From: Candidatus Hermodarchaeota archaeon
GTDB taxonomy: Archaea > Asgardarchaeota > Hermodarchaeia > Hermodarchaeales > Hermodarchaeaceae
Direction of reading: 5' to 3'
Assembly: GCA_016839805.1 (NCBI GenBank)
Contig: JAEOTO010000015.1
Coordinates: forward strand, 21,778-85,777
Length of the DNA stretch: 64,000 nt
Position 1 is the stretch's first letter. Each line of letters starts with the position of its first letter. The translations under genes were made by a program, and so were the position numbers. This document shows, one piece after another, positions 41,167 through 63,153 of this stretch. The notes under the pieces were generated by a model. That model had not been told where the DNA came from. It did not search any database and saw only the letters and a program-made list of their open reading frames with translations.

Positions 41167-41517
41167 TTAGGGTTTTATGTAAACCCATCCCTCTGCCTGT
41201 TTTTTTACCAGTTCACCGACACCTGAGGTCACGAACTCAACTGTATCCAACAAGAAATCTCGTCCTAGATTATTAGCGGCTAGCGAATTCTCACAAATCG
41301 CAAACACAACTCCACAGTTCACCAGCTTCTTGATTCTATTAGGGACTGGGCAGGTCTCAGTCACAAAGAGTTTCACACCTGCACCATTCACAACAAGTTC
41401 TACAGAGACCTCTCCCTCTCCAAGATCTGTGAGTAGATTCTCAATGTTGCTTAGCGCTAGTTTTAGGCGAAAGTTACTGCCTTCATCCAAATGAAACAGA
41501 ACTCGATATTTTGTCAT
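41167..41517 (-). CDS. DsrE/DsrF-like family protein (COG1416-type)
   Basis: From the internal ATG: MTKYRVLFHLDEGS...VELVVNGAGVKLF...FAICENSL...GWVYIKP matches the small DsrE-like family. The 33-codon upstream extension in the track ORF is hydrophobic or low-information. Confidence 0.7.
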   Translation of the reverse strand: MTKYRVLFHLDEGSNFRLKLALSNIENLLTDLGEGEVSVELVVNGAGVKLFVTETCPVPNRIKKLVNCGVVFAICENSLAANNLGRDFLLDTVEFVTSGVGELVKKQAEGWVYIKP

Positions 41518-41647
41518 TAGAATCCATCTCAGACGTTTTTTATTGCCTTGTGTTGTTAATTGGGTTATTTGTCTTTCTAAAACAAAAATACTTGAGAACA
41601 GTAAAGCTAAGGGCATCTTCCTGCACTAATACTGGAATGGTGATTTA

Positions 41648-45760: not shown

Positions 45761-45775
45761 GATTCATCGCCTCGC

Positions 45776-47206
45776 CTACTTCTTCGCCTTTTCATCCAGG
45801 CGTTTTATTATGACCTTTTCAGCGTAGATTTTTGCATTCTTGAAGATAATCTGGAATCCTGGACTACCACCAGCCGCAGGCACAGTGGTCATCATTTGAC
45901 CTGGCATCATGAAAGGTTGACTAGCTTGTGTCGTTGGAGCTGCTTCTTCAACGCGTTCTTCTTCCTCAAGGCGAGCCGCTGCACCAGTTTCAGTCCAGCG
46001 CTCAACGACTGGGTGATTATGGTCTTGTAGGTATCGTTTTAATTCATCGATATCAGAAACATCGTTTTCTGTAGGAATGATATCTCTCAGATTATCAGGC
46101 ATGAAGTCATAGATTCTGTCTTTGATAGCTTTGGGCAACCAGACAACTCTTTCCCACCCTCCATCAACTTGAAGGAATTTGGGTGATCGCATATATTCTA
46201 TCGAAACCCCATGAAAACCAGGAATCTGGCGACCACCAGCTGTCGAATCAGCCATCGTTGAAAATGGCAAGCCATTTACAGAAGGACCCTTGTAATCACG
46301 GTGAACTAAACCAAGACCATCAACTTCTGGGATGATAAAAGCAATTGCTTCGAAACAACCACAACTAGTATGTGGTTTATCAAAAGCACTATACAAACAT
46401 ACCTCAGTAACCGCACCCAAGGTTTTTTCCTTGTAGGCTTGATTAACCCCCTTGTATTCGCCTTTGAACTCATCAATGACATCACCTTTCTCTATGGAAA
46501 ATAAAGGTCCCTTCGGATCAACACGTGCAGCCGCACGACCATCGAACCACGAAATCGCACCACAATTTGCATAGCGCTGTGCAGTAATGGTACAACAATG
46601 GGTTGGGGCAAAACTTTGGCAGAGTGTGCAACCATAAAAGACATCAACCTCTTCGTCTTTTAGACCACGAGCGCGAGCGTCACGTTCATCATACCGTTTT
46701 ATTGCAGCATCGAATTGTTCAGCGATTTTATCAGGATCAGTAAAGAAGGTGATTTGGATTTTCTCGATAATAGGTAGTTCACTCTTGTAAAGGCGTTCGT
46801 AAACTTGACCAAATACCTTAAAGGAATTGAGTCCTTTTTGGAATGATTTCTTGCTAATGCGAATCCAAATGTCGTATCTTTGGTTTAGGTGCATAACCCC
46901 TTCCATGAAGTTGGTATATTCGTGGACGTGGCGTTCGAGGACGCCCTCCAGGTCTTCTTCGACTTCTTTACCTGCAACTTCTATCAAGATTCCAAGCGGA
47001 TGGTAACCTCCTTCGTCCAAATCTTTGAGATCAGGACCAACGACAGTAATTTTACCATCTTCGACTTCTGCAGCTTTCTTGGCGAGAACGAGTTCGAATT
47101 TCTTTTCGATTTTTGGTCCGCCGAGTTCGACTTGCATATCGCCCTTGCGAATGCGTTCACCCTCATAGATTACACCTACTTCCATTGGGAGATCTTCGAA
47201 TGACAT
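45776..47206 (-). CDS. cdhC: Acetyl-CoA synthase, ACDS complex subunit beta (A-cluster)
   Basis: CTLCQSFAPTHCCTITAQRYANCGAISWFDGRAA and HTSCGCFE (Cys-Gly-Cys) are A-cluster ligand motifs. I chose the ATG at 47206, which is preceded by GGAGGT. The track ORF starts 6 codons earlier (47224). Confidence 0.9.
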   Translation of the reverse strand: MSFEDLPMEVGVIYEGERIRKGDMQVELGGPKIEKKFELVLAKKAAEVEDGKITVVGPDLKDLDEGGYHPLGILIEVAGKEVEEDLEGVLERHVHEYTNFMEGVMHLNQRYDIWIRISKKSFQKGLNSFKVFGQVYERLYKSELPIIEKIQITFFTDPDKIAEQFDAAIKRYDERDARARGLKDEEVDVFYGCTLCQSFAPTHCCTITAQRYANCGAISWFDGRAAARVDPKGPLFSIEKGDVIDEFKGEYKGVNQAYKEKTLGAVTEVCLYSAFDKPHTSCGCFEAIAFIIPEVDGLGLVHRDYKGPSVNGLPFSTMADSTAGGRQIPGFHGVSIEYMRSPKFLQVDGGWERVVWLPKAIKDRIYDFMPDNLRDIIPTENDVSDIDELKRYLQDHNHPVVERWTETGAAARLEEEERVEEAAPTTQASQPFMMPGQMMTTVPAAGGSPGFQIIFKNAKIYAEKVIIKRLDEKAKK

Positions 47207-47207
47207 T

Positions 47208-47753
47208 CTATTTCTTACCTCCATTTTTAGTGAGGATTTCTTTTAGTGCATCATTCCATTTTTGTTTCTTTAAATTCGGGAAGGACCACGACGCATGGGG
47301 TTGGAAATACCGACCTAAACTGACAGTTTTCATTTCAGTGGAGAAGTTGACTAGGGCGGAGAGCATTAGCCACTCCATATAATAGGGGAAACCAAAGGTC
47401 ATGACAAGGTCATGCGGGCCCTTCTTCGGTGCCACCATCCATTCAGGGTCAGTCAGTAGATATGTGATTTCCATAGCGTTGTGGGAGTATACGTTTTTGA
47501 ATCCTTTTTCCTTGAAGGCTTTAATGGTTTGAGCGGTTGCGACAATGGGGATGTTCCAATTCTCGGAAAATTCGATGAAGTAGTCAATCATCGACTTTTT
47601 CCGAGTTTGCTCTGTTAGGCTGTTGGCACCCACAACAAGAAGAGGATGTTTTGCTTTCTTGAGAAGTGCCTTGACCACGACGGGTTTTTCGAGTGATTGG
47701 GCTTTCTTTGGACCACAGACTTCAGCAGTCTGCCAGGGTTCAGCACGCATCAT
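47208..47753 (-). CDS. cdhB: ACDS complex subunit epsilon
   Basis: 181 aa, with the ATG directly abutting the cdhA stop. The PWQTAEVCGPKKA and AKHPLLVVG blocks and the size match CdhB. Confidence 0.75.
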   Translation of the reverse strand: MMRAEPWQTAEVCGPKKAQSLEKPVVVKALLKKAKHPLLVVGANSLTEQTRKKSMIDYFIEFSENWNIPIVATAQTIKAFKEKGFKNVYSHNAMEITYLLTDPEWMVAPKKGPHDLVMTFGFPYYMEWLMLSALVNFSTEMKTVSLGRYFQPHASWSFPNLKKQKWNDALKEILTKNGGKK

Positions 47754-50207
47754 TTACCCATCACCTCCACCATAGACCATACGCTGTAGAATTGTTGGAT
47801 CTGGAATGGGCTTCTCTTGCCATTTGTGTTCTTTCATGTGAACGTGGATTTTATCTTTAAGGGTGATGGGGATATCCGATTCTCGGCGAATGAAGCTATG
47901 TACGTCGTCAGGGAAGTAACCATAGTACCGTTCATGAAGATCGATGTAGTGGCTGAGCTTTATGGACCGACCTCTGCTAGTGTCGTTGGGTCGGAAGCAA
48001 AGCTTTGCGGTCATTACCATGCACTCTTCCATAGTTTCTACTGCATAGAAGAGGTGTTCAGGAGCTGGCGCAATTTGGACTTGGTTGCCAGTTCGTGCAT
48101 CGTACACCTTCCAGTCCTCTGCTTTGTCTGCACGTCCAAGTAACATTCGGCGATATTTCGTTCCATGTGGACCAACGATTACTGGAACTCCAAGGCGCCA
48201 AAAGCCAGAAGCAATTGAAGCTGCTTTTTGTGACATAGCGCCCCAAGATATACCAACTGCACCAACTCGGTTGAGGATGTAGTCAGCGATTTCTTCATAG
48301 TTTCCACGAAGGTTACGTTTCGCGAAGATGCTTGCAATTTTGATGGCAGCACCCGCAATGTGGGGATTCGAAACACAGGAGCCCACGTTAACGACACCAC
48401 CTGCATCAAAAGCGCCCGTACGTCGTTCGTAGATACTTTTTCCTTCTTCGTCTTTAACAGTACCAACAGTCATAGCTGCGCAACCAGAGAGTACAATGAT
48501 GAAGCGGCGTTTTGCGAATTCTTCAGCCATGTCATGAATTGCTCGTCCTCCGTCAGGATAATTAGCACATCCAACATGTGCAATTACGCCTGGGATTTCT
48601 CCGAAAACAACAGGTTGCCCCACGGCCCGTATCTCTGTATCTTTGATGGCACCACGCCCTGTCCGAACCTTAAAGGACTCGTTCATCCAACGATCTTTTG
48701 CTGCAGTAACCATCCAGCTATGAAGCTCATATTCGTTGGGACAAGCTGATTCACATCGCGCACATCCAATGCATTCATCATAAACATCTACAAGTGGACC
48801 AAAGTTTCCTTCAGATGCTGCTAGTACTGCTTCCATGACTGGTTGATCATTGGGACAAGCCCTTCGGCATTCTGAACATTGTCGGCAGGTTTGGGCGAGT
48901 TCTTTAATTTTGTTCTTGCTTGGCAATGAGGATTTCTTCTTACGTTTTGGTTTCACAGCCAGAGCAGTCTTTACGACTACTTCACCCACTTTACTATGGT
49001 CGCCAATGAAGACTCCAGGCACTTTAAAGGAGACTAAATCAGCAACAATCGCATCCACATCATCATTTGTACGATCTGGTAAGCCCATACAAGATTTATC
49101 ACAAGTAGCAATAACTGGTGTTTTGACTTTTGCTGCATGCAATGGAATATCTGTCCGAATACATTGTTCATCAACAACCAAAACGTCAGCTAAGCCACTT
49201 CGCACAAAACGTAGTTGCCAAGAGATAGGACCGACAATCTTGGCTTTGGAGTCATGTCTGGTTATATCCCAGGCTGTGCAGCAAATTCCACTGACATCGA
49301 CCTTATCTTGGAGTCCGTGCTCCATTGAATAATCAGTTATCGCTGCAGCGGGAACAACATTGTGTCCGATACATAGGATCGTAGCTTTTGACTGATCCAT
49401 GGAGGCGATGCCAGCTTCAACTAATGGTGCCTCTGGATCTGATTGGGGAAAGCCCATTGTGGAGATTTGAACCAGATCCGCGATTTCCATCCCCACTTGG
49501 TCAATCATTCCAGCATGAAGTACCTTTGATTCAAAGTCTAACCAACTGCCCTCTTGACCCGTATGGACTGCTGACAAAGTATGTGTAAGTTGAGTTTCAC
49601 AATAATCGATAATCGATGACGCATCTTCTAAAGAACGAGGGCGAATTCCAGTTACTAACCGTGAAACAGGAGCTTCAATATCTACACCCTCGCCTTGCGT
49701 TAAAGGTGTTCGTGGACCAAATTCATGAATCAAATGATCAACAAGATGTCGAGCATGCGCCAAGTGTGCCGCACACCCGATGTTCGCGGCAGCCAACACA
49801 ATTCGTGCGGACTGTCCCTTAATGTCCAGACCACAAGCTCCGCGTTTTCCACCCGTCAGGTCACATTTACCGAAGGTACAAAGACAGCACAGCTGACAAG
49901 CTGGCATGTATGAGGGTTGGTAACGCTTCAGGAGTTTGTGGTCCCAATCGCGAAGCGTGGTGACTTCTGGCATGGGAGTTGGTCCCATGGGTTCGTCCCA
50001 GTCTTCATCGATAACTCTGCCAATACTGACTTCGACGTTGCGGAAACTTCCGAAACCGGTGTCAAGTCGATCGGCTCGTATTCGGGCCCGTTTTTGTTCT
50101 GTCAATGTGGTTCGTTCCTTCCATTTGCGCGCATAGTAGGAGGGAAATATTGGTGAAATAGTAGCAGTTTCGCCTTTAAGTTTTGATGCTTCTGCAAGGT
50201 TTTGCAT
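47754..50207 (-). CDS. cdhA: ACDS complex subunit alpha (Ni-Fe-S CO dehydrogenase catalytic subunit)
   Basis: 817 aa. N-terminal Cys clusters (CQLCCLCTFGKCDL, GACG). Inserted 2x[4Fe-4S] ferredoxin domain (CRQCSECRRACP, CIGCARCESACP). C-cluster regions (GHNV, VGCANY, SGCAAM, GSCVSN). Confidence 0.92.
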   Translation of the reverse strand: MQNLAEASKLKGETATISPIFPSYYARKWKERTTLTEQKRARIRADRLDTGFGSFRNVEVSIGRVIDEDWDEPMGPTPMPEVTTLRDWDHKLLKRYQPSYMPACQLCCLCTFGKCDLTGGKRGACGLDIKGQSARIVLAAANIGCAAHLAHARHLVDHLIHEFGPRTPLTQGEGVDIEAPVSRLVTGIRPRSLEDASSIIDYCETQLTHTLSAVHTGQEGSWLDFESKVLHAGMIDQVGMEIADLVQISTMGFPQSDPEAPLVEAGIASMDQSKATILCIGHNVVPAAAITDYSMEHGLQDKVDVSGICCTAWDITRHDSKAKIVGPISWQLRFVRSGLADVLVVDEQCIRTDIPLHAAKVKTPVIATCDKSCMGLPDRTNDDVDAIVADLVSFKVPGVFIGDHSKVGEVVVKTALAVKPKRKKKSSLPSKNKIKELAQTCRQCSECRRACPNDQPVMEAVLAASEGNFGPLVDVYDECIGCARCESACPNEYELHSWMVTAAKDRWMNESFKVRTGRGAIKDTEIRAVGQPVVFGEIPGVIAHVGCANYPDGGRAIHDMAEEFAKRRFIIVLSGCAAMTVGTVKDEEGKSIYERRTGAFDAGGVVNVGSCVSNPHIAGAAIKIASIFAKRNLRGNYEEIADYILNRVGAVGISWGAMSQKAASIASGFWRLGVPVIVGPHGTKYRRMLLGRADKAEDWKVYDARTGNQVQIAPAPEHLFYAVETMEECMVMTAKLCFRPNDTSRGRSIKLSHYIDLHERYYGYFPDDVHSFIRRESDIPITLKDKIHVHMKEHKWQEKPIPDPTILQRMVYGGGDG

Positions 50208-52561: not shown

Positions 52562-53764
52562 CTATTCAATTGGGATTTTTCGTCCATTTATGTAGACTTC
52601 GGAGACTTCACTATAGAATTCAAATGGATGACTGGTCCACACAACGATATCAGCATCTTTTCCGGGTTCAAAGGAACCAATACGATCCTGTAGATTTAGA
52701 ATCTGAGCAGGATTAATTGTGACACATTTTAGGGCGTCTTCTCGACTCATACCGTGTTTGATGGCATACATGGGCAAGAGCGGAAAATAATGCATGGGTG
52801 TCAACGAATCCGTTTGCAGCGCAACTTTGACTCCAGCCTTATTGAGGATCACTGCGGTCTTGAACCCACGTTCGCGGGTTTCCGGTTTAGAGACCCAAAA
52901 AATCGTCGGACCGATTACAGCAGGAATGTCACTCTTTGCGATGACTTTCGCAATTTTGTGGCCTTCTGTGCAGTGGATCAAAACGAGGTGGAGATTGAAT
53001 TCCTTAGCGATTCGAATAATCGTAGCAATATCATCAGCTCGGTGGGCATGGGCATGCAGAGGTATTTCACGTTTCAGTATCTTAGCGATGGTTTCAAGGC
53101 CGAGATCACGTTTAGGAGGTTTGGGTGCTACTTCTTTTTTCTTCTTGGACTCTTTTACTTTAGCTCCAAAGGCTTTCCATTCATCAAGATAATTTTGACC
53201 ATCGGTGAGTGTTTTTCGGATTAATGCTGCAACGCCCATTCGGGTCATCGGCATACGTTTATTTTCATGTCCATGGACACGCTTTGGATTTTCCCCCAGA
53301 GCAATTTTGAGACCAGAAGGTGACAAGACAATCATCTCGTCGACGACACCCTCAGGTAGTGGTTTAATAACAAAACATTCGCCCGATATCACGTTACCTG
53401 ACCCAGGACCGGTATTCACGGTGGTAACACCACCTTTGAGAATTTCTTTGATAGATGGTTCAAAAGGATAGAAGCCATCCATCCCTCGCATTTCAGGTGT
53501 GACTGGTGTTGTCATCTCATTGCCATCCATGCCCATGGGACCAATACTTCCATCAAAGAGTCCATGATGGGCATGTGCCTCAATAAATCCAGGCACAACA
53601 TACTGTCCCTCAACATCAATGGTTTTCGTCTTACTTGGGATTGGTATTGATTTCCCTACATCAACAATTTTACCACGATCGAAAAGCAAAGTGCCTTTCT
53701 CAATATGTCCCTTCACAGGACAAAGAATCGTTGCATTGGTAATTGCTTTCAATAAATTCACCAA
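52562..53764 (-). CDS. Amidohydrolase family protein (metal-dependent hydrolase)
   Basis: PGFIEAHAHHG (HxH), later His residues (HAHAH, IHC) and GKDADIVVW are typical of the amidohydrolase superfamily. Confidence 0.85.
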   Translation of the reverse strand: MVNLLKAITNATILCPVKGHIEKGTLLFDRGKIVDVGKSIPIPSKTKTIDVEGQYVVPGFIEAHAHHGLFDGSIGPMGMDGNEMTTPVTPEMRGMDGFYPFEPSIKEILKGGVTTVNTGPGSGNVISGECFVIKPLPEGVVDEMIVLSPSGLKIALGENPKRVHGHENKRMPMTRMGVAALIRKTLTDGQNYLDEWKAFGAKVKESKKKKEVAPKPPKRDLGLETIAKILKREIPLHAHAHRADDIATIIRIAKEFNLHLVLIHCTEGHKIAKVIAKSDIPAVIGPTIFWVSKPETRERGFKTAVILNKAGVKVALQTDSLTPMHYFPLLPMYAIKHGMSREDALKCVTINPAQILNLQDRIGSFEPGKDADIVVWTSHPFEFYSEVSEVYINGRKIPIE

Positions 53765-53817: not shown

Positions 53818-54426
53818 TTAGTCTTTTGGTTTACGAAGTTTTGGAAAGATAGCTCCGGTCCGTTTTTGGTACTCGCGATACTCATCCCCAAAGCGTTTGA
53901 TGAGATCCTCTTCCTCATAATGGATGATAATAGGACTAACGATGATAATCATGATGATGGCCCAAATAACTAGGAAAAGGGAGTTAATGAAGAGAGGAAT
54001 GATAACAAACCAGGGCATCTCGCCTACGGCTTGGGGGTGTCGAATGTAGTTGTAGATACCGCCATACATTTGTGTAGTTTCGGAGGGTATCATGGTTTCC
54101 GGACCAGCATCTTTGATACCTTTGATCCAAATAGGTGTGAATATGATAGCAAGAATTACGCCAATGAGGATGCTTACGAGATGACAAGGGTTAACGAACC
54201 AGGCTAGTTCTTGAATCGGGAACCATATCCACAGGATAAAATTTATCGTCATAACTCCCATGAGGATTCCCGATGTGGCTCGGAACCGTTTAGAATCTTG
54301 CCAGGCTTTCTCACCATATTTTTCAGAACGAGAAGCTGGTTGAACGCTAAGGATGTAAAAGTACCAACAAAATATCGCTGCAATATTTAGGATAATGAAA
54401 TTTGCCCAAGGAATTAATGTCATCAC
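53818..54426 (-). CDS. Isoprenylcysteine carboxyl methyltransferase (ICMT)/PEMT-family membrane methyltransferase, paralog 1
   Basis: GIYNYIRHPQAVGEM ... EEEDLIKRFGDEYREYQKRTGAIFP is the ICMT-family C-terminal signature. Five TM helices. Confidence 0.8.
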   Translation of the reverse strand: MMTLIPWANFIILNIAAIFCWYFYILSVQPASRSEKYGEKAWQDSKRFRATSGILMGVMTINFILWIWFPIQELAWFVNPCHLVSILIGVILAIIFTPIWIKGIKDAGPETMIPSETTQMYGGIYNYIRHPQAVGEMPWFVIIPLFINSLFLVIWAIIMIIIVSPIIIHYEEEDLIKRFGDEYREYQKRTGAIFPKLRKPKD

Positions 54427-55046
54427 GAGTCAGCTTTTGTAATTTTAGTCCGATTCCTTCTAAGTTTGGGGATTAGTGCAGGTATAAGTTTTCGATAGTC
54501 AATGTAGTCTTGACCAAATCTTTTCACCAAATCTTTCTCTTCAAAATAAATCGCGAGAGGCGTATAGATCAGGACGAATAATGTCATCCATAATACTAGA
54601 AACCAGGAATTCAAGAAAAATCCTAGAGCAATATACAAGGGCATTTCCCCCAAAGCTCCTGGATGTCGAATGTGGTTATAGATTCCTTCATGCATTGTCG
54701 TTTCTTCATGTGCTGCACCATGTTCCTTTCCACCATCTTTCATTGCCTTGAACATGATAATAGAAAAGGGGGTAGCGATTCCAATCCCCAAAGCCATTGG
54801 AATAAATGGATTTAAACTAATAGGCCAGATGAATGAGGGAATCGGGAACCAAAGCCAAAGAATAGCATTGATGATTACAATGAAGATGGCAATGAAGCAG
54901 ATTTGTCGGAGCCAAAAGCATCTTCGCCAAGCCTTTTCTCCCCATCTCTCTGACAACGTTATGGGTAATGTGCTTAATATACTTGTAACTGAAAAAATCA
55001 CGACGAACACATACATGCTAACAAAATTCAACCAATTACCAATCAC
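54423..55046 (-). CDS. ICMT/PEMT-family membrane methyltransferase, paralog 2
   Basis: GIYNHIRHPGALGEM ... EEKDLVKRFGQDYIDYRK. It overlaps paralog 1 by 4 nt (ATGA). Confidence 0.8.
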   Translation of the reverse strand: MIGNWLNFVSMYVFVVIFSVTSILSTLPITLSERWGEKAWRRCFWLRQICFIAIFIVIINAILWLWFPIPSFIWPISLNPFIPMALGIGIATPFSIIMFKAMKDGGKEHGAAHEETTMHEGIYNHIRHPGALGEMPLYIALGFFLNSWFLVLWMTLFVLIYTPLAIYFEEKDLVKRFGQDYIDYRKLIPALIPKLRRNRTKITKADS

Positions 55047-55221
55047 ATTATCGACTCTTTTCTTAGTTGAATTTTTGATCGATGATTATTCTTTAGGGAA
55101 CTATATATAAAAAGTTAAATTTAAATGTTAATTAATTGCTATAATTATTAGTATTTATTCTAATATAATACTGAGTGCCTATAATAAATACCCCAACAAA
55201 CGCAACATAAATTTTGACTGT

Positions 55222-55830
55222 TCAATTGGAATCGTTCCTTTTCTTTAATTTAGGGAAAAGGGCTCCAGTCCGTTGTTGATATTCACAGTATTCATCACCA
55301 AATCGTCGAATCAAATCCTTTTCCTCGACATAAATCATGATTGGAAGATAAATAAGAATGAAGATAAATGTGTAGACTAACAGGAAGAGAGAATTAACTA
55401 CGAAGACTAAGACAAAGTACCAGCTCATTTCACCAAGTGTTTGGGGATGTCGGATGTAGTTGTAGATACCGCCAAACATTTTTGTTTTTGTTGATGGTGT
55501 CTTCGCTTCATCCCCAGATTCTTTTAGACCCTTGTACACAATAGGCAGGGTGCTGAAAAAGATGATGAAGGCAATGGCGTATCCAATCCATGGATTGAAG
55601 AATATTAGCCAGGCGAGTTGGGGAACTGGAAACCATAGCCAAAGAAACATGGTGAAAAGTTGAATGACCATGAAAATTGTGCCAATTGTTCTGAACCGTT
55701 CACAGAGTTTCCAGGCGTTTGGTCCACGTTTTTCTGCTAATTTTGCAGGCATAAGACTGGGGATGTAGAATCCTGCAAAGAGTGCACCACTGATGAACAG
55801 CATAGCAAGGTTGAACCATGGGATTAGCAC
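55222..55830 (-). CDS. ICMT/PEMT-family membrane methyltransferase, paralog 3
   Basis: GIYNYIRHPQTLGEM ... EEKDLIRRFGDEYCEYQQRTGALFP. It is separated from paralog 2 by a 175-nt, very AT-rich spacer. Confidence 0.8.
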   Translation of the reverse strand: MLIPWFNLAMLFISGALFAGFYIPSLMPAKLAEKRGPNAWKLCERFRTIGTIFMVIQLFTMFLWLWFPVPQLAWLIFFNPWIGYAIAFIIFFSTLPIVYKGLKESGDEAKTPSTKTKMFGGIYNYIRHPQTLGEMSWYFVLVFVVNSLFLLVYTFIFILIYLPIMIYVEEKDLIRRFGDEYCEYQQRTGALFPKLKKRNDSN

Positions 55831-55896: not shown

Positions 55897-56691
55897 TTAT
55901 AAACTTAAGTGCCTACGCAGTTCTGGAATAAGACCCTGGATGGCGTTGATAGCTGGGGAATCAGCCGCAAAATCTAATGGGGCAATACCTTCGATATTGG
56001 CTTGGCGGATGGCCTTATCAAAGGGTATTACAGTGAGTAGAGGGATATTCAACTCATTTAGAGTTGTTTCGATAACTTCTTTGTCGGTTTCGTCCATTAC
56101 CTTATTCGCTATTGCAAAGACTGTATCGACACCGATATCATGGGCGAGTTTCATGATTCGTCCCACGGTATTGATGGATGTCTGACTTGGCTCAACTACA
56201 ACAAGTAATGCATCCATTCCCTTTGATGTGCCTCGACCAAGGTTTTCAATTCCTGCTTCAAGATCCATCACAAAGGCTTCATCCATTCCAACAATTAAGT
56301 ACCGAATTAGCGCCTTCAGAAGAGCACCTGCAGGACACATACATCCGGATCCTCCAATGGTAACGGTTCCAGCGACAAGGAGGGTAACATTATCTGGTCC
56401 AGCTATTCCAAATTTATCTGCTAAATCGGCTACGTGCGGATTGAGTTTGAACATCTGACCATAAACTTTGGGATCCATACCTGTTCGTTCTTTCACTAAT
56501 TCATCGTTTTCAGTTAGTGGGATAATCTTGTCAGCAACATCAGAAGGAATACCTAACGTTGCAGCCAATGTTGGTGTGGGATCAGCATCTACAGCAAGTA
56601 CTCGGATACCCTCTCGGCCTAATAGACGAGCTAGGGTTCCTGAAACAAGAGTCTTGCCGACACCACCTTTTCCAGCTACTGCGATTTTCAT
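55897..56691 (-). CDS. cooC: CooC/AcsF-type Ni-insertion accessory ATPase (MinD/ParA fold)
   Basis: Deviant Walker A AGKGGVGKT, VDADP, KERTG, the GCMCP CxC metal motif, DLEAGIENLGRGT and VVEPS are all CooC-family blocks. Confidence 0.88.
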   Translation of the reverse strand: MKIAVAGKGGVGKTLVSGTLARLLGREGIRVLAVDADPTPTLAATLGIPSDVADKIIPLTENDELVKERTGMDPKVYGQMFKLNPHVADLADKFGIAGPDNVTLLVAGTVTIGGSGCMCPAGALLKALIRYLIVGMDEAFVMDLEAGIENLGRGTSKGMDALLVVVEPSQTSINTVGRIMKLAHDIGVDTVFAIANKVMDETDKEVIETTLNELNIPLLTVIPFDKAIRQANIEGIAPLDFAADSPAINAIQGLIPELRRHLSL

Positions 56692-56755
56692 TCAATCACC
56701 AACTGCGCGTAGGTACATTTAGCTATTGCTTAAAACCTTCGCCTTTCCCACCATC

Positions 56756-58045
56756 CTACAAAACGGCTAACCATGATGCCAGCTGTTCTAACACTTGTAC
56801 TTCAGTAGGAATGTTAGCTGGTGGCTTAGTTATAGGTTGAACGGGAACAGCGGATCCATCCATTCGGTAAACTACACCAGTCGTTTCTACGCCTGTTACA
56901 GCTGTAGGAATCACAACTGTAGATTCACGTGTTGTAAGACTGGGATGGGTTGAAAGGGTGATGAGTGGAATTTTCTCAAGCGCCCTTGCGATTGGCGCAG
57001 GTAACATACTGAGTGGGTCCCAACCCACGATTAGTGCAGCATCGAACTCGTTAGCGATGAGTCCTTTAAAGACTGATTTGTAGGGTCTAGGGGGTTGACG
57101 GTTGAAATCCACTGAATAGGGTATTTTTGTATCAGTTTGGCTTGCTGTCACAACGCCTATACTATTACAATATGCGACCATAGGAAGAGTAACGCATGGT
57201 CGGCTCTTCTTGTTTAATACTCGAGCGACCTTCGAAAGTAATGGTAATGTTTTCGAAGCATGAGGTGAATGGAGTAACCCATTTCCATAAAAGATTGCGA
57301 TGTAGTTCGCTTCTTGAATTTGTTTAGCAAAACTGAGAAACTCGATGGCGGGTATTCCTCCAACTTTGACAGGTGGGGTTCCAGTTGTGCCCTTGATTTC
57401 AGTTAGGAGCGTAGTTAAAAACTGTTCATCACCATTCTTGAATTCGAGAATGAGTTGGTGGTTGGCCAGTCGCATGGATTCAGTCTGTCGAATATCTAAT
57501 ACGGCAACGGTTCGACTTTCCCGACCCTCTGGTATTTTTTCTCCTGTTGGGAAGACAGTATAACGGCTGGCATGGCGGTGGTGGCTCTCGGCTGGGTTGA
57601 CGCCCCAATAGACGATGAAATCTGCAAGGTTCCGGATATCCTCGAGGTTAACTGTTCCTGTTTCACCACCCACTAACTTATGTTGACGAAGTTGACCATA
57701 CTCAAAGCTTGCGGTGCTATCATAGACTCCCTTCAAAGACTTGGCAAGTTTCAAACCTAAATGTGAAACTTCGATTGGACTATTGGACCAACCAATTAGC
57801 AAGGGACGTTGACTCGAGGAGAGAATGGAACTTGCTTCTTCATAGGCTTTTTTGAATGGAATAGTTTTAGCACTTGTTGATTTGGCTTTCATCTGAGCTT
57901 TCTTTAGCCGCGTTTGACTTCGTATTGACGAATAATAAGCATGACCAAGAGCACATAATCCGAGTGACTGAATGCCAGTTTTTGTTACTTTTGCAGCTAC
58001 ATCATCACAGACAACAGAGCATCCGCAACAAACCGTATCTTGCAT
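56756..58045 (-). CDS. Formylmethanofuran dehydrogenase subunit B-like molybdo/tungstopterin protein (non-canonical active-site position)
   Basis: The N-terminal VCCGCSVVCDD [4Fe-4S] motif, PLLIGWS and ADFIVYWGVNPAESHHRHASR match FwdB/FmdB. The size (429 aa) fits. The expected Cys-His position reads E115-Y116 (see findings). Confidence 0.72.
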   Translation of the reverse strand: MQDTVCCGCSVVCDDVAAKVTKTGIQSLGLCALGHAYYSSIRSQTRLKKAQMKAKSTSAKTIPFKKAYEEASSILSSSQRPLLIGWSNSPIEVSHLGLKLAKSLKGVYDSTASFEYGQLRQHKLVGGETGTVNLEDIRNLADFIVYWGVNPAESHHRHASRYTVFPTGEKIPEGRESRTVAVLDIRQTESMRLANHQLILEFKNGDEQFLTTLLTEIKGTTGTPPVKVGGIPAIEFLSFAKQIQEANYIAIFYGNGLLHSPHASKTLPLLSKVARVLNKKSRPCVTLPMVAYCNSIGVVTASQTDTKIPYSVDFNRQPPRPYKSVFKGLIANEFDAALIVGWDPLSMLPAPIARALEKIPLITLSTHPSLTTRESTVVIPTAVTGVETTGVVYRMDGSAVPVQPITKPPANIPTEVQVLEQLASWLAVL

Positions 58046-58076
58046 AAATTCCCCGACCTACAGGAATGTGCATCCA

Positions 58077-58544
58077 TTACCAGATTTCAATCGCTTTCAC
58101 ATAACAACCTTGTTCACAGACTCGACAATTCATCCGATCTGGAGGAAACCGTCGGCATTTTTCGAGATTAATAATTTTTGCAGTGCCATTTTCAACACGA
58201 AAAACCGTGTCTGTCGACCGAGCAGCTTTACCACTAGCTGTGTCAGGTTCCGCAGAGGCATCTACAGGACATACGACGACACAGTTCCCACAACCGGTAC
58301 ACATGGTATCATCAAGTTTAACTCCCGTTTCTTCAGCAGCCAGTAAGGGTGTTATTAATTCATTGATGGTGGCAAGCTGGGTAGCATATTGTGGGTTCTC
58401 ATGAAGAGGTGGACAATCCTTGAGTTCGACCTCGCGAAGAGCTAGACGTGTCGCAAAAGCCATACAGGTCATTCCACATTGTTTGCAATTGGTTTGGGGA
58501 AGGAGTTTATACAATTGCATTGGATTGAGCTTTTTGTCAACCAT
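58077..58544 (-). CDS. Fe-S protein: RnfB/CdhE-type N-terminal FeS domain plus 2x[4Fe-4S] ferredoxin domain
   Basis: LPQTNCKQCGMTCMAFATRLA...DCP (PF04060-like), then CTGCGNCVVVCP and C..CRVCEQGC. Confidence 0.75.
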   Translation of the reverse strand: MVDKKLNPMQLYKLLPQTNCKQCGMTCMAFATRLALREVELKDCPPLHENPQYATQLATINELITPLLAAEETGVKLDDTMCTGCGNCVVVCPVDASAEPDTASGKAARSTDTVFRVENGTAKIINLEKCRRFPPDRMNCRVCEQGCYVKAIEIW

Positions 58545-58711
58545 TCGATCACGACACAGTTCTTAAGTAATCTTGAACCTGTGTGTACCTTTATCTGTTC
58601 GGTAACGACTATATGATTTGTTGTAGTGTTTGCCTCAATAATTAAATCAGAAGATGGTAAGGTAAGAAGTGTTATAGCGTCTCATGTTGCATCGAAACAT
58701 GGCATAGTCAT

Positions 58712-61174
58712 ATGGTGACATCCGTGTCAAAGTCCACAAAGCGAAAAAAGGCCAAACAAAAAACTTCGCGTAGGAAACCCCGGAAGCAATCTACACCTCA
58801 AGGGGCCCTATTCATTTGTCATTGTGGAAGCAATATTGAAAGTGTTATTGATATTGATCAACTGAAACAGTATTACAAGACGCGACCTAATCTCATTGTG
58901 GTGGATGATGCACACTTTTGTGTTGAACAGGGACTCAATTCGATTCGTGATACAATTCGAGACAATAAAGTTGACCATGTGGTTGTAGCGGCCTGTTCTC
59001 CTCATCTTCATGGAGAATTAATGAGTCAAACCGTAGAAGAGGCTGGATTGAATCGAGGGCACCTTGCTATTGCTAACATTCGTGAACAGTGTAGTTGGGT
59101 CCATTATGGTGACCCGGAAGCAGCGACCACGAAGGCTCGTTTGATGATTGATGCCGCTATGAAAATGGCTGAGCATAGTCTACCTCTCCATTCAATTGAT
59201 ATTCCTATAACAAAACGAGTCCTAGTGATTGGTGGAGGAGTTGCTGGTATTATCACCTCATTACAACTTGCCAATGCCGGCTATGAAGTAATTCTTGTTG
59301 AAAAAACGGGTTTCTTGGGAGGTCACATGGCTAAATGGGACAAGTTGTTCCCAAGTTTGGATTGCAGTTTATGCATTCTAGGACCCATAATGACTCAGGT
59401 TAACACCCATCCCAAAATCAAAACATTAACCCTTAGTGAAATCACAGATGTCCAGGGAACTCCTGGTGCGTATGATGTCCAGATCCACCAAGAACCTCGT
59501 TATGTCGATTTAGAAACCTGTAACGGCTGTAATAAATGTCTTGAAATTTGTCCGATAGAAGAACCCAACGAGTATAATTATGGCTTGGGATCTCGCCGAG
59601 CGATTATCCGACCCTTTCCAAATTCAGTTCCGCTTGCTCCATACATCGATATGGACGCATGTGTCGGCTGTCAATCGTGTGTCGGTGTGTGCGAAAAGGA
59701 ATCTATTCGATTCGAAGATATAGATCGTGATTATACATTCAAAGTGGGTGCCATCGTAGTTGCAACAGGATTCCAACCATTTAACCCACAATCATTAGCT
59801 GAGTATGGGTATGAGAGATATACTGATGTTATTACCGCACCAGAATTGGAACGATTAATGAATCCCACAGGGCCTACAAATGGGATTGTTGTTAATCCAT
59901 CCACTGGTAAGCAACCGAATAAGGTCGCCTTCGTGCAATGTGTCGGGAGTCGCGATATTCGAATTGGTCGACCTTATTGTAGCCGAATCTGTTGTACTTA
60001 CGCTGTCAAGGAAGCAGTGCAACTGCGTTTAGCTCAACCAGAAACGGATGTATACATTTTCTATACCGATATGCGAACCTTTGGCAAAGGTTTCGAAGAA
60101 CTATATGAACGAGCGGCACGAGAACATGGTATCACATTCATTCGCGGTCGTGTAGCAGAAGTCGAAGAGGATCCTCAAACAAAGAAGCTCATTATACGTG
60201 CAGAGGATACCGAACTTTGTGAACCTATTGAGCTACCAGTTGACATGGTAGTATTAAGCGTGGGAGTTGATCCTTCACCCACCAACGCGAAGCTCGCAAC
60301 CATACTTAATATTCCCCTAGATGAAAATAACTTCTTTCTTGAGAAACATCCCAAACTCGACCCAACAGGAACCTATTCCACTGGCATTTTTCTTGCTGGA
60401 AATTCACAGGGTCCAAAGGATATTGCAGATACAGTGGCTCATGCCGGATTAGCTGCAGCTCAGGTTTCCGCCTTACTTCATCGGCGTAAGCTTTCACTTG
60501 AAGTGATCGCCCCACTTTTGGTGGATGCAAATCTGTGTGAGGGATGTAGGCTGTGTGAAAAAACCTGTGATGCCAATGCCATCTCCTTTGAAAATTCTTC
60601 TCTTCCAGAAATTGATGAACTAGCATGTACTGGGTGTGGAGCATGTGTTGCAGCCTGTCCTACTGGTGCTCTAGACCTCCCAGGATATACGCGTCAACAA
60701 TTGATGGCAGCGGTAAATGCGGCCTGTACTGACAACCCATTCCAACCCGTTATTATTGGCTTCCTCTGTAACTGGTGTGCTTATACAGCTGCAGATAGCG
60801 CGGGAGTGAATCGTTTGCGATATCCTCCCCAACTCATTCCTATTCGAGTACCGTGCAGTAGTCGTTTAGATCCACTGCTGATTCTTGAGGCTTTTAGTCA
60901 AGGAGCTGATGGTGTAGCGATTTTGGGGTGTCATGACACTGATTGTCATTACAGGACTGGTGTTGCAAAAGCGAAAACGCGTATTGATAACCTGCTTCCT
61001 CTCCTTGGTGAGATGGGGATTAGTGTTGATCGGATTTTCTTTGGAAGCACCGCAGCGTCAGAAGCTGGACATCTTCAAGAACTCATCTCTGACTTTGTGA
61101 AATTTATTGCTGAGTTGGGTCCACTAGGTGCCGAATTAACAGTGACGACAAAAACTCGTAAGCATAGAAGATGA
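58712..61174 (+). CDS. hdrA: Heterodisulfide reductase subunit A-like flavoprotein fused to an MvhD domain
   Basis: VLVIGGGVAGIITSLQLANAGYEVILVEK...GGHM FAD fold. Inserted ferredoxin motifs: CNGCNKCLEICP, CVGCQSCVGVC, CEGCRLCEKTC, CTGCGACVAACP. C-terminal FLCNWCAYTAAD...RVPCSSR...GADGVAILGCHDTDCHY is MvhD. Confidence 0.9.
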   Translation: MVTSVSKSTKRKKAKQKTSRRKPRKQSTPQGALFICHCGSNIESVIDIDQLKQYYKTRPNLIVVDDAHFCVEQGLNSIRDTIRDNKVDHVVVAACSPHLHGELMSQTVEEAGLNRGHLAIANIREQCSWVHYGDPEAATTKARLMIDAAMKMAEHSLPLHSIDIPITKRVLVIGGGVAGIITSLQLANAGYEVILVEKTGFLGGHMAKWDKLFPSLDCSLCILGPIMTQVNTHPKIKTLTLSEITDVQGTPGAYDVQIHQEPRYVDLETCNGCNKCLEICPIEEPNEYNYGLGSRRAIIRPFPNSVPLAPYIDMDACVGCQSCVGVCEKESIRFEDIDRDYTFKVGAIVVATGFQPFNPQSLAEYGYERYTDVITAPELERLMNPTGPTNGIVVNPSTGKQPNKVAFVQCVGSRDIRIGRPYCSRICCTYAVKEAVQLRLAQPETDVYIFYTDMRTFGKGFEELYERAAREHGITFIRGRVAEVEEDPQTKKLIIRAEDTELCEPIELPVDMVVLSVGVDPSPTNAKLATILNIPLDENNFFLEKHPKLDPTGTYSTGIFLAGNSQGPKDIADTVAHAGLAAAQVSALLHRRKLSLEVIAPLLVDANLCEGCRLCEKTCDANAISFENSSLPEIDELACTGCGACVAACPTGALDLPGYTRQQLMAAVNAACTDNPFQPVIIGFLCNWCAYTAADSAGVNRLRYPPQLIPIRVPCSSRLDPLLILEAFSQGADGVAILGCHDTDCHYRTGVAKAKTRIDNLLPLLGEMGISVDRIFFGSTAASEAGHLQELISDFVKFIAELGPLGAELTVTTKTRKHRR

Positions 61175-61288
61175 AGGCTTATAGTTGGTTTCGCTCTCCT
61201 ATTAGACCAAGTCTAGGATGGCAACAACCATTAAAGGTGTTAATTTGTAAGGCTAGAATAAGAACCTCTATTTGAAGAGATGCTCTAG

Positions 61289-62773
61289 ATGACCAAAGCG
61301 CAAAGGGACCGCATCATTGTTGGTGAACGCCCCAAAGTAACCAGTGAGGTTCTTGACGATACTAATATCCGCTATAATTGGAAAACCTCAATTCTTTATA
61401 AAAATCTGAAATATGACTTATCCCGTTGTGTTGGGTGCAGTCTCTGTCTTCCTTGTCCCTGGGATGCTATTACTTTAGGACCCGTTCAGGAAATTGCAGC
61501 AGGACGCCTTGAGGGCGCTCCCTTGATTTTGATTGATGAGGATAAATGTACTTTCTGTGGGTTATGTGATTCAGCCTGTCTTTTCAATGCCATAGAAGCT
61601 CGATTTGATGATATACCCGCAGATGCCCAATATTCTCGTTTAAAGGGAAAACATGAACTTGACGAGGACAAATGTGCCCCCTGTCTGCTTTGCGCGAAAA
61701 TCTGTCCAAGGGATGCAATATCCGTTGATCTGAAGGTTACACCTAAAACCGAACTCGTTCAATACAAGAATCCCAAAGCGGCCCAACGTGTAGCCGATGG
61801 TGTCCCTGATGCAAAAGGCTCAATAAAAATTGACGAGGACAAATGTACCTGGTGTGGACTATGCGAACTACTTTGCCCGGAATGTATCACTATCTACTGG
61901 CTTGAAGAGAAGCCCAAACCTCCTGATTTTACTGCAGCTGTTGGCATCAGGGTAGACACCAAATATTGTGACTATTGTGGTCTATGCGAAAAGATCTGTC
62001 CCTCTGATGCTGTTCATGTTGAATGTGAGAGTTCACCACACCGTACCATTAAAGATCCAGAAGTCGATGGCACCATGACCATTGATGACGGATTGTGCGT
62101 GGATTGTACGCTTTGCGCTGATAAATGCCCTTATGAAGCCCTTGATGTCACTCTCCCCTTAACTGGAGCTATTGAGATTCAAAACCTCGAAAAATGTGAT
62201 CCCACAGGCTGTGTTAATTGCTTCAATATCTGTCCAACAAAAGCTATCTATGCCACAGGAGATAAGGACAAAATCGCAATAAATGAAGAGATCTGTGTTT
62301 TTTGTGGGGCATGCGAAAATGCATGTCCCGAACAGGTTCTGAAGGTGACACGTGACAGTTATCAATTGTCTCAACTTGAGAAAGCTCGGGACTGGGAACG
62401 CGCTCGCGCACACAGATTCTATGACCACTTAATCGGACGTGATATTCCACCCAACGATATCTACGAGCGAATCATTAAGGTCCCCCCAGTAAAACATCCA
62501 CCTGGGGTACAGACCAAAACGGAAAAGTGGTCTACAGATACAGCAAGCCGCCATTTAGCCCAAGACCGAATTCAAAAACTACAACAAATCATCCGAAAGA
62601 ATTGGCGGCTTCGACTACTCTTTGAAAGAGGTCGCATTGATCCGCTCTGTACTGCGGTCCAAAAAGAGGTTAATAACAAAAAAATATCTAAAAGTAAAAG
62701 CAACACAGCGCCTGTAAAACACAAGGACCCAGCAAAAAAATATAGTAAAAAAACTAGACCCAAAACCCGATGA
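61289..62773 (+). CDS. Polyferredoxin with eight [4Fe-4S]-type motifs (FwdF/MvhB-like) and a Lys-rich C-terminal tail
   Basis: Eight Cys motifs were counted: CVGCSLCLPCP, CTFCGLCDSAC, CAPCLLCAKICP, CTWCGLCELLCP, CDYCGLCEKICP, CVDCTLCADKCP, C..CVNCFNICP, CVFCGACENACP. Confidence 0.88.
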   Translation: MTKAQRDRIIVGERPKVTSEVLDDTNIRYNWKTSILYKNLKYDLSRCVGCSLCLPCPWDAITLGPVQEIAAGRLEGAPLILIDEDKCTFCGLCDSACLFNAIEARFDDIPADAQYSRLKGKHELDEDKCAPCLLCAKICPRDAISVDLKVTPKTELVQYKNPKAAQRVADGVPDAKGSIKIDEDKCTWCGLCELLCPECITIYWLEEKPKPPDFTAAVGIRVDTKYCDYCGLCEKICPSDAVHVECESSPHRTIKDPEVDGTMTIDDGLCVDCTLCADKCPYEALDVTLPLTGAIEIQNLEKCDPTGCVNCFNICPTKAIYATGDKDKIAINEEICVFCGACENACPEQVLKVTRDSYQLSQLEKARDWERARAHRFYDHLIGRDIPPNDIYERIIKVPPVKHPPGVQTKTEKWSTDTASRHLAQDRIQKLQQIIRKNWRLRLLFERGRIDPLCTAVQKEVNNKKISKSKSNTAPVKHKDPAKKYSKKTRPKTR

Positions 62774-62775
62774 TC

Positions 62776-63153
62776 TTAGGGTAATTCCTTGATTTTGGTA
62801 AGGGGTCCCTTACTGGGTTTAATAATGACCGTTGTGCCCTGGCTAGGGATCATGGATTCAATGACCGCGTATGCCCAAGGACTGGGTTGCATAACCACAA
62901 TGCTTTCCGGTTGTTCTTCTTTCAATTTCGCTGCCACAACCACAGAACCAATTTTCGAACCCACCTCGACAAAATCGCCTTCTTTTATATCCAATCGCTG
63001 TGCATCACGAGTCGAGAGAGTAATTTGGGCTGCGACCTTCTCGTATTCTTTGGATATTGTTCCTTGACTTATCTGAACCACATCGACATCCAGTGCCCGG
63101 GCTAGAACTAATTGCGCTTCTATCTGTGGGTAAAGGAAATCACGCAGTGCCAA
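62776..63153 (-). CDS. Formylmethanofuran dehydrogenase subunit D-like (molybdopterin dinucleotide-binding beta-barrel domain)
   Basis: 125 aa. ITLSTRDAQRLDIKEGDFVEVGSKIGSVVVAAKLKEE..ESIVVM is the Molydop_binding pattern of FwdD/FmdD. It is convergent with the polyferredoxin gene, with 2 nt between the stops. Confidence 0.7.
   Translation of the reverse strand: MALRDFLYPQIEAQLVLARALDVDVVQISQGTISKEYEKVAAQITLSTRDAQRLDIKEGDFVEVGSKIGSVVVAAKLKEEQPESIVVMQPSPWAYAVIESMIPSQGTTVIIKPSKGPLTKIKELP

Follow-up and report, generated by a model that had tools for sequence, protein, structure and literature searches.

Whether a group of genes resembling parts of a formylmethanofuran dehydrogenase (Fwd or Fmd) and of a heterodisulfide reductase (Hdr) makes up an ordinary Fwd/Hdr system is the question raised by positions 55897-63153 of the DNA analysed here. 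The window, meaning the whole 64,000-nucleotide stretch of a contig of Candidatus Hermodarchaeota archaeon (JAEOTO010000015.1), had been described in an earlier note as carrying at this place a redox module distinct from canonical Fwd and Hdr complexes and built around a formate dehydrogenase-like catalytic unit. The present analysis bears out a distinct Hdr/Fwd-derived redox module that is neither a canonical Fwd nor a canonical Hdr operon, and argues against the catalytic unit. The locus holds a genuine variant of the Hdr-Fwd system that is conserved, apparently has not been described before and shows a remodelled FwdB subunit and a consistent association with CO dehydrogenase/acetyl-CoA synthase (CODH/ACS). 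Its building blocks all belong to known families; the mechanism is one that we infer. With about even confidence, the region is read as encoding a descendant of the Hdr-Fwd supercomplex of methanogens that is conserved in Asgard and TACK archaea and acts as a flavin-based bifurcating or confurcating hub wired to CODH/ACS.

Gene content and conservation of the module

All six open reading frames (ORFs) that had been claimed were found, with coordinates and strands unchanged. On the minus strand lies the string fwdG′-fwdB′-cooC, the prime marking the non-canonical versions. FwdG′ (58077-58544, 155 residues) is an iron-sulfur (Fe-S) protein that combines an N-terminal domain of the CdhE/corrinoid iron-sulfur protein (CFeSP) type with a FwdG-like 2x[4Fe-4S] domain, FwdB′ (56756-58045, 429 residues) is a non-canonical FwdB paralogue and the terminal gene, which starts 64 bp after fwdB′, encodes a CooC-type P-loop metallochaperone ATPase (55897-56691, 264 residues). 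A divergent intergenic region of 167 bp (58545-58711), presumed to be a bidirectional promoter region, separates fwdG′ from two plus-strand genes encoding an HdrA-MvhD fusion flavoprotein (58712-61174, 820 residues) and a polyferredoxin of the FwdF/FmdF type with eight [4Fe-4S] motifs (61289-62773, 494 residues). The last gene, fwdD′ (62776-63153, minus strand, 125 residues), encodes a FwdD-like domain-IV protein of the molybdenum/tungsten bis(pyranopterin guanine dinucleotide) (Mo/W-bisPGD) fold and is convergent with the polyferredoxin gene, with 2 bp between the stop codons.

Matches in Pfam, NCBIfam and the PDB support the HdrA-MvhD fusion, the eight-cluster polyferredoxin and the convergent FwdD-like gene. 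The HdrA part of the fusion (residues 22-673) matches the HdrA chain 8rvu_a with an E value of 1.6e-185, and the MvhD part (residues 677-805, with PF02662 over residues 681-803) matches the MvhD chain 5odc_D with an E value of 6.7e-35. The domain order, HdrA domains followed by a fused MvhD, is that of HdrA2, and the best NCBIfam model is HdrA2 itself (NF040770; 921.9 bits over residues 33-807, below the cut-off of 1100). The polyferredoxin likewise scores below the cut-off of the FwdF model (NF042909; 219.8 bits over residues 38-371, cut-off 375). Its eight CxxCxxCxx(x)C-type motifs are kept in all orthologues compared, as is a C-terminal extension of about 120 residues with an 'LFERG(R/K)xD' motif ('LLFERGRID' in the window), which canonical FwdF (349 residues in the PDB) presumably lacks. 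FwdD′ matches PF01568 (E value 1.5e-11), with the FwdD chains 8rja_D and 5t5i_D as its best PDB matches.

Several peripheral features of these proteins were observed. The HdrA-MvhD fusion begins with a Lys/Arg-rich tail of about 30 residues (58712-58810), confined to Hermod-type and Thor versions among the versions compared (loci L002, L004 and L030), and the polyferredoxin ends in a Lys-rich tail (62660-62773). Many Hermod-type loci carry a gene for a protein of 460-560 residues between hdrA-mvhD and the polyferredoxin gene (L002 5124-6698, L004 4681-6063, L033 4909-6594). This gene was considered as a missing subunit and rejected: it has no Fe-S or flavin domains and no confident Pfam match, it varies between loci and the window, with 114 bp between the two flanking genes, does not have it. 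Its product looks as if it combined a signal/transmembrane segment with a beta-propeller-like part, and one version has a RING-like zinc finger.

A survey of GTDB species representatives of Asgard archaea found 17 loci carrying the gene for a FwdB′ with the Glu-Tyr (E-Y) signature discussed below, of which 15 extend far enough upstream of fwdB′ to be informative. The divergent arrangement fwdG′-fwdB′-cooC/hdrA-mvhD-polyferredoxin is present in all 15, and loci that reach farther also carry the convergent fwdD′. The quintet of FwdD′, polyferredoxin, HdrA-MvhD, FwdG′ and FwdB′ was found in Hermod-, Thor- and Baldrarchaea and in Thermoproteota. Since the arrangement occurs in every informative Asgard locus and in other phyla, it is not a product of chance. 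The divergent layout is kept in both Asgard and Thermoproteota loci, and the position of fwdD′ is conserved in Asgard, Thor and Thermoproteota loci.

The lineages differ in what surrounds the quintet. Thermoproteota have the module at three loci, and cdhCBA abuts fwdD′ in the two that are long enough (L025 and L026). The Thor locus L030 reads fwdD′/polyferredoxin-hdrA-mvhD/fwdG′-fwdB′-cooC-cdhABCDE-cooC, and an archaeal contig (L031) carries everything in one string, cooT-fwdG′-fwdB′-hdrA/mvhD-polyferredoxin-(fwdD′)-hdrC-hdrB-cooC-cdhA-cdhB. In Baldrarchaeia (L028 and L029) the module is accompanied by hdrCB and a divergent fwdA-like gene, with no cdh gene within 8 kb. What stays constant is thus the quintet and its Fe-S ligands and, mostly, CODH/ACS with Ni chaperones, whereas the residues at the FwdB′ 'active-site' positions, the presence of HdrBC and the insertions vary between modules. 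A distant E-Y lineage (L006, JGI 3300060621 contig, FwdB′ P0043) has the module dispersed over about 15 kb, with hdrA-mvhD, fwdG′, fwdB′ and cooC interrupted by unrelated genes and with MtrH, URO-D and a B12-binding methyltransferase, not cdh, as neighbors.

The FwdB paralogue and its replaced metal site

FwdB′ matches the FwdB model TIGR03129 with an E value of 4e-91 over residues 4-423, at a score (305.6 bits) below the equivalog cut-off of 327.8. Its PDB matches are FwdB chains with E values of 1e-54 (8rja_B), 1e-52 (5t5i_B) and up to 1e-46. An AlphaFold2 (AF2) model of FwdB′ (pLDDT 80.5) has FwdB chains (8rja_B, 5t5i and 7bkb_H) as its top Foldseek neighbors, with TM-scores of 0.82-0.85. 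NuoG, Nfn-ABC/StnABC chains and FhcB are also among the fold neighbors, the TM-score to FhcB being only 0.65.

Alignment with 5t5i_B and 8rja_B places the canonical 'TASVCHGP' (Cys118-His119, Methanothermobacter wolfeii numbering) opposite 'TASFEYGQ' in FwdB′ and the canonical 'PMRGHYN' (Arg288 and His290) opposite 'PMVAYCN'. Cys118 occupies the Cys/Sec metal-ligand position (PMC7325909), and His119, Arg288 and His290 have roles around the metal in the canonical enzymes (PMC11656701). In FwdB′ these four residues are replaced by Glu115, Tyr116, Val290 and Tyr292. A database search delimits an E-Y clade of 57 homologs with at least 51% identity, the next group being canonical FwdB at no more than 35%; the few clade members that bear organism names are all Asgard (Hermod-, Prometh-, Thor- and Hodarchaeota). 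Glu115 is invariant in all 56 homologs that cover the segment, as is Tyr116 in every clade member covering it; position 290 is Val or Ile and position 292 is Tyr, Leu or His. About 70 columns are invariant in the clade, all Fe-S ligands among them, including the N-terminal [4Fe-4S] ligands Cys6, Cys9, Cys13 and Cys31. Because the Cys/His/Arg/His metal environment is gone, FwdB′ is not a canonical CO2 reductase.

The wider family was surveyed by searching representatives at 50% identity exhaustively and by building a neighbor-joining tree. The E-Y clade groups with non-canonical FwdB-like lineages in which 'C[TS]GCSLLC' stands at the N-terminus and Arg288 is gone throughout, and these lineages separate from the canonical 'CxFCGxLC ... 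CH ... R' proteins. The tree and the alignment therefore set the B-like subunit apart from canonical FwdB clades, with an active site that is not conserved, which leaves the earlier note's reading of a distinct module unrefuted on this point. The residues at the catalytic positions are E-Y..V in Hermodarchaeota, G-L/V..V/A/T in Thorarchaeota, C-Q..A in Baldrarchaeia and C-H..S in Thermoproteota. Gene order and Fe-S ligands are thus kept among orthologous modules while the residues at the catalytic site differ, so that the conserved function cannot rest on one catalytic reaction at that site. The series C-H..R, C-H..S, C-Q..A and G-L or E-Y supplies evolutionary intermediates for the turning of an Mo/W enzyme to another role.

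Purifying selection acts on all members of the module, and FwdB′ is not decaying: between the window and the orthologous locus L010, the ratio of nonsynonymous to synonymous substitution rates (dN/dS) is 0.14 at a dS of 0.53, about twice the values of its neighbors FwdG′ (0.07) and CooC (0.09). It is at the same time the fastest-evolving protein of the cluster, with identities between loci of 53-69% compared with 75-85% for its neighbors. The invariant loop NPAESHHRHASR and the cluster-binding N-terminus form low-confidence parts of the AF2 model; low confidence is common in loops that bind ligands. Residues 151-167 (NPAESHHRHASRYTVFP) are the most conserved segment of the protein, nearly all of them invariant, and yet have the lowest AF2 confidence (pLDDT below 50); they may form a loop that becomes ordered only on binding of a ligand or partner. 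Retention of pterin motifs does not separate the E-Y clade from the FhcB-like group, which keep 47 and 48, respectively, of 71 canonical-conserved columns. FwdB′ is most likely a structural and electron-relay platform, its cofactor content being a matter of prediction.

The earlier note's claim of a formate dehydrogenase-like CO2/formate catalytic unit does not fit these results, given that neither the Cys that ligates the metal nor any of the neighboring His, Arg and His residues is kept, at positions that are hypervariable between orthologous modules. A broader form of this claim would have FwdB′ and FwdD′ as an active Mo/W-pterin unit of the formate dehydrogenase (FDH) type, catalyzing the CO2/formate interconversion or a new reaction, possibly with Glu as metal ligand, coupled to bifurcation by HdrA and matured with the help of CooC. 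Sites without a Cys ligand have precedent, as there are Mo enzymes whose metal is bound by Asp, by Ser or by no residue of the protein. In favor of such a unit, FwdB′ has kept the whole FwdB fold and its N-terminal cluster ligands are invariant, Glu115 and Tyr116 do not vary, the gene is under purifying selection, Cys is kept in the Thermoproteota and Baldrarchaeia versions and every lineage has FwdD′, whose canonical counterpart contributes to holding the cofactor between B and D. An active unit is nevertheless considered unlikely: besides the loss of all four canonical residues, none of the non-canonical lineages has the Arg and Thor versions have Gly at the ligand position, which leaves no common catalytic chemistry; FwdB′ outpaces every neighbor in divergence; and cooC stands beside cdhA in sister lineages.

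A canonical system does exist among Asgard archaea. A Hodarchaeales locus (L032) carries the operon ftr-fwdD-fwdB-fwdA-fwdC with a FwdA of 568 residues and a FwdB that has 'CPFCGSLC', the Cys-His pair and the Arg, and that shares 31% identity with the window FwdB′. The presence of this operon in an Asgard genome indicates that the window FwdB′ is a paralogue, not an orthologue, of the canonical subunit. When the canonical FwdB of the same lineage was sought with a canonical sequence (P0058), all names among the matches were those of Bathyarchaeia and TACK archaea; that FwdB′ and canonical FwdB may co-occur in one genome is suggested by the Hodarchaeales operon and a published gene table.

The remaining Fwd and Hdr subunits were sought around the module. 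No FwdA, FwdC, HdrB or HdrC family match was found by Pfam and NCBIfam searches in the other ORFs of at least 110 residues in the window, and a near-identical Logan contig that continues 3.8 kb past the window end adds only a rhomboid protein, CofC and an MFS transporter, which rules out an ordinary split operon next door. Neither fwdA nor fwdC occurs at locus L001 or within 10 kb on either side of the 17 Asgard loci, and hdrB and hdrC were not found in the Asgard E-Y loci. Genes for Mvh or Fdh electron input are likewise not in the window, where the only homologs are those of A (with D), F, G, B′ and D′. The lack of HdrB/C and FwdA/C noted earlier thus holds only locally, since sister modules carry hdrCB or a fwdA-like gene and published tables for the closest metagenome-assembled genome (MAG), h03m_104, list fmdA, fmdC (beside ftr and mch) and hdrB on other contigs (PMC8163825). 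The Baldrarchaeia FwdA-like amidohydrolase (L028/L029 2185-3735, 516 residues) lies right after fwdD′ and scores 184 bits against TIGR03121, whose cut-off is 393.

Two genes of the window were examined as concealed partners and rejected. An amidohydrolase at 52562-53764 is not a cryptic FwdA, as its best PDB match is 3ooq (E value 7e-97) and it matches the L028 FwdA-like protein only with an E value of 0.003. The gene two positions from fwdD′ is not MobA, which would have pointed to pterin guanylylation, but CofC (TIGR03552, 127.8 bits against a cut-off of 105).

The window genes could still be the redox half (B, D, F and G) of a real Fwd together with the HdrA of a normal HdrABC, the rest being encoded elsewhere. 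The distribution of fmdA, fmdC and hdrB in h03m_104 agrees with such split operons, as does the counting of its FwdB′ orthologue as fmdB, but a different contig of this MAG carries a further fmdB with an fmdD six genes away (PMC8163825, Table S9), and these two could be the canonical pair or belong to a second module. The hdrCB genes of the sister modules L028 and L031, the fwdA-like gene of L028 and the Methanosarcina acetivorans HdrA2 with its associated polyferredoxin (PMC9012536) also speak for split operons; fwdC, however, is absent from every non-canonical module examined (L028, L030, L031 and the Asgard and Thermoproteota loci), the constant partner being cdh and not fwdA/C. The residues required for CO2 reduction are missing from FwdB′, and a complete ftr-fwdDBAC operon exists in an Asgard genome. 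On balance, split operons of this kind seem quite improbable.

Linkage to CODH/ACS and the proposed electron pathway

The best PDB match of CooC is CooC1 (3kje, E value 4.7e-40), within the CbiA/ParA class of Pfam. It contains the deviant Walker A motif GKGGVGKT and a GCMCP (CxC) motif aligned with GGSQCYC of CooC1. Downstream of cooC, at a distance of 5.7 kb, the same strand carries an archaeal CODH/ACS operon, cdhA-cdhB-cdhC-cdhD (44408-50207, minus strand), beyond five unrelated same-strand genes and a small opposite-strand GYD gene. CdhA scores 1134 bits with TIGR00314, CdhB and CdhC are above their cut-offs and CdhD scores 543 bits with NF003375. Among the Asgard loci, cooC follows fwdB′ in 17 of 17 and cdhA(-D) lies 2-6 kb downstream in nine of the 11 that are informative. 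Linkage to cdh is also present in L025, L026, L030, L031 and L033, and cooC immediately precedes cdhA in L030 (after fwdB′) and L031 (after hdrB). As fwdB′ (or hdrB), cooC and cdhA follow each other without a gap in Thor and one other lineage, CooC would most simply be a Ni-insertion factor for CODH. The inference previously drawn from a cooC that is co-operonic with fwdB and not with cdh consequently lacks support, with cdhABCD 5.7 kb downstream and cooC adjacent to cdhA in sister lineages.

A second tie to CODH/ACS is found in FwdG′. Its best PDB matches are FwdG/FmdG chains (9sfi_U, 5t5i_G and 7bkb_L), followed by CFeSP large subunits over residues 6-79. The PF04060 domain spans residues 15-46, with the N-terminal cluster at Cys20, Cys23, Cys27 and Cys44, and the N-terminal domain scores higher with the CdhE model (NF003195, 62.5 bits) than with the RnfB model (42.5 bits). 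Its earlier description as a 2x[4Fe-4S] protein with an RnfB-type domain is thus refined: three clusters are predicted rather than two, and CdhE outscores RnfB. The FwdG′ N-terminus appears, by eye, close to the CdhE N-terminus of Thor locus L030, and the FwdG′ orthologues of L027 and L031 do not have the PF04060 domain. A cdhE gene (gamma, the corrinoid subunit) was not found in the 64 kb window, whereas Thor L030 has cdhABCDE; apart from the N-terminal domain of FwdG′, nothing resembling CdhE occurs in the window. Absence of the Fe-S domain from CdhE was considered as a sign that the domain had moved to FwdG′ and was rejected, as the Thor CdhE retains the domain when a GTG start is used.

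In canonical complexes, FmdF and FmdG carry low-potential electrons from HdrA to FmdB, where they reach its cluster and W/Mo site. The CO2/CO couple and the corrinoid of CODH/ACS need electrons as low in potential as those needed by Fwd. The window module preserves the wire but not the terminal site and has cdh as a near-constant neighbor, which argues for an electron hub serving CODH/ACS. In such a hub, HdrA-MvhD would be the flavin-based bifurcating or confurcating core, and the low-potential branch would run through the polyferredoxin and FwdG′, with its CdhE-type arm, to the [4Fe-4S] cluster of FwdB′/FwdD′. The CdhE-type domain may serve as a docking or electron arm towards acetyl-CoA decarbonylase/synthase (ACDS), CooC would insert Ni into CODH and the high-potential branch, HdrBC or another acceptor, would be encoded elsewhere in the lineage. 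In the reductive direction, low-potential electrons would reach CO2/CO chemistry or the corrinoid protein; in the oxidative direction, electrons would be collected from CODH for confurcation. Hermodarchaeota have been proposed to oxidize acetyl-CoA by the reverse pathway (PMC8163825), so the module may not donate electrons to CODH but collect them from it for confurcation.

Several points weigh against a hub of this kind. FwdD′ is retained everywhere, although the cofactor-less Fhc has lost its D subunit, and this retention is compatible with a retained pterin and a catalytic role, as are the invariance of Glu115 and Tyr116 and the conserved loop of low model confidence. The Baldrarchaeia loci L028 and L029 and the E-Y locus L006 have no cdh within 8-10 kb. 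The synteny from which complex formation and contact with CODH/ACS are predicted extends, in Hermod-type loci, also to unrelated PEMT-like, amidohydrolase and metallophosphoesterase genes, so that part of the cdh linkage could be inherited gene order.

A bolder version of the CODH/ACS hub is put forward tentatively, as a possibility rather than an expectation. An Hdr-type flavoprotein would be hard-wired through the polyferredoxin and FwdG′/FwdB′/FwdD′ directly to CODH/ACS, bifurcation replacing free ferredoxin in the interconversion of CO2 and CO/acetyl-CoA in Asgard and TACK archaea, with FwdB′/FwdD′ as either a docking adaptor or a new Glu-ligated pterin site. If true, this supercomplex would be to the carbonyl branch what the Hdr-Fmd supercomplex is in methanogens, and present reconstructions of the Asgard Wood-Ljungdahl pathway would mis-assign these genes.

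The same electrons might instead serve repair. Delivered at very low potential through the CdhE-like arm of FwdG′, they would mainly serve to return the corrinoid of the ACDS gamma/delta component from Co(II) to its active state, making the module an ATP-independent, bifurcation-driven counterpart of bacterial RACo. In CFeSP, electrons reach the corrinoid by way of the equivalent domain; FwdG′ has an N-terminal domain of the CdhE type, near a genuine CdhE N-terminus by eye, and cdh and Ni-chaperone genes are linked to the module. This role is nonetheless very doubtful, as the evidence for it is purely inferential, FwdG′ of L027 and L031 is without PF04060, and an eight-cluster wire with a bifurcating flavoprotein seems excessive for occasional repair. 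That FwdB′ and FwdD′ are non-functional Fwd remnants kept by linkage alone is scarcely credible, for despite the lost catalytic residues and the fastest evolutionary rate in the cluster there are intact ORFs in 57 homologs, a dN/dS of 0.14, some 70 invariant columns and a module conserved across two phyla.

Neighboring genes and comparison with known systems

Other genes of the window were noted in passing. Between cooC and the amidohydrolase gene, 53818-55830 (minus strand) encodes three tandem paralogous PEMT/ICMT/NnrU-like membrane proteins (202, 207 and 202 residues), of which related loci have one or two copies. A DsrE/DsrF-like sulfur-relay protein is encoded 2.8 kb beyond cdhD (41167-41616, minus strand). 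The gene at 38221-40815 (minus strand), for an 864-residue NosD/right-handed beta-helix protein, coincides with the lowest-GC stretch (0.36 compared with about 0.43-0.44 for the window) and may stem from horizontal transfer. The 266-residue product of 23575-24375 (minus strand) has a Ras-family small GTPase domain and, as a typical Asgard eukaryotic-signature protein, is consistent with the Asgard assignment. The longest of these ORFs, with 2308 residues (13833-20759, plus strand), combines a C25 (gingipain-type) peptidase and propeptide with CARDB, DUF4350, IFT52-GIFT-like and fibronectin-III domains.

In the full-text literature searched, no description of the module or of its cdh linkage was found, which does not by itself prove that it is unpublished. 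Its genes have been listed under other labels. In Table S9 of PMC8163825, the FwdB′ orthologue of L010 (h03m_104_k127_1779544_9) bears the label fmdB, and its FwdG′ neighbor is entered under acetyl-CoA decarbonylase/synthase gamma (CdhE); both labels are annotation transfer. Because the residues for CO2 reduction are absent, FwdB′ should not be taken as the enzyme for the first step of the methyl branch. A selenoproteome study takes Asgard FmdB as Cys-containing (PMC11227280), which by sequence is true of the canonical Asgard operon and not of the E-Y clade.

CooC shares the P-loop, the CxC motif and homology to CooC1 with CooC/AcsF-type ATPases, its gene in the window being separated from cdhA by the 5.7 kb described above. 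For FwdB′ there are several proteins with a FwdB/FDH-like fold that have lost the catalytic ligand and act as scaffold or relay, namely FhcB (PDB entry 6S6Y), NuoG/Nqo3 and Nfn-ABC/StnABC. NuoG/Nqo3 of complex I and the large subunits of Nfn-ABC/StnABC are not known to carry the Mo/W-bisPGD cofactor; for FwdB′ its loss is a prediction. FhcB is reported to have lost the metallopterin, in a complex without a D subunit (PMC11656701). FhcB sits with fhcA/C/D, whereas the window has FwdD′ but no A, C or Ftr adjacent.

The HdrA-MvhD fusion and its polyferredoxin have a counterpart in HdrA2 (MA2868) of M. acetivorans, which is also an HdrA-MvhD fusion with an associated polyferredoxin (PMC9012536), although the window fusion scores below the HdrA2 cut-off (922 compared with 1100 bits). 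The gene neighborhoods are alike in one respect and differ in another. The hdrB2C2 genes, whose products work with HdrA2 in the HdrA2B2C2 heterodisulfide reductase, lie elsewhere in the M. acetivorans genome, and this precedent makes an HdrBC encoded apart workable. The Methanosarcina HdrA2-polyferredoxin pair is not known to be accompanied by FwdB/D/G-like genes or cdh.

The closest known systems are the methanogen Hdr-Fmd/Fwd supercomplexes, the Fdh-Hdr-Fmd complex of Methanospirillum hungatei (PDB entry 7BKB) and the Mvh-Hdr-Fmd complexes of class I methanogens (PMC13580544; PMC13518236), which use the same HdrA, MvhD, FmdF, FmdG, FmdB and FmdD building blocks and whose subunits are the best solved-structure matches of the window HdrA-MvhD, FwdB′, FwdD′ and FwdG′. 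A 2026 survey calls the FmdF groups outside class I methanogens, Methanomicrobiales and Methanocellales uncharacterized and asks for structures of Hdr complexes from TACK archaea (PMC13580544), a call that the present module answers, and its constant partnership with cdh, which suggests a direct link between Hdr and CODH/ACS, should be of interest for archaeal bioenergetics and Asgard metabolism. Compared with the methanogen supercomplexes, the module has no FwdA/FwdC or HdrB/HdrC encoded locally and its FwdB′ has no Cys/His/Arg/His metal environment; its MvhD is fused to HdrA, its FwdG′ has gained an extra CdhE-type domain and its polyferredoxin a C-terminal extension. It is linked to cdh rather than to fwd, mvh or fdh genes, and its host is a non-methanogenic Asgard archaeon.

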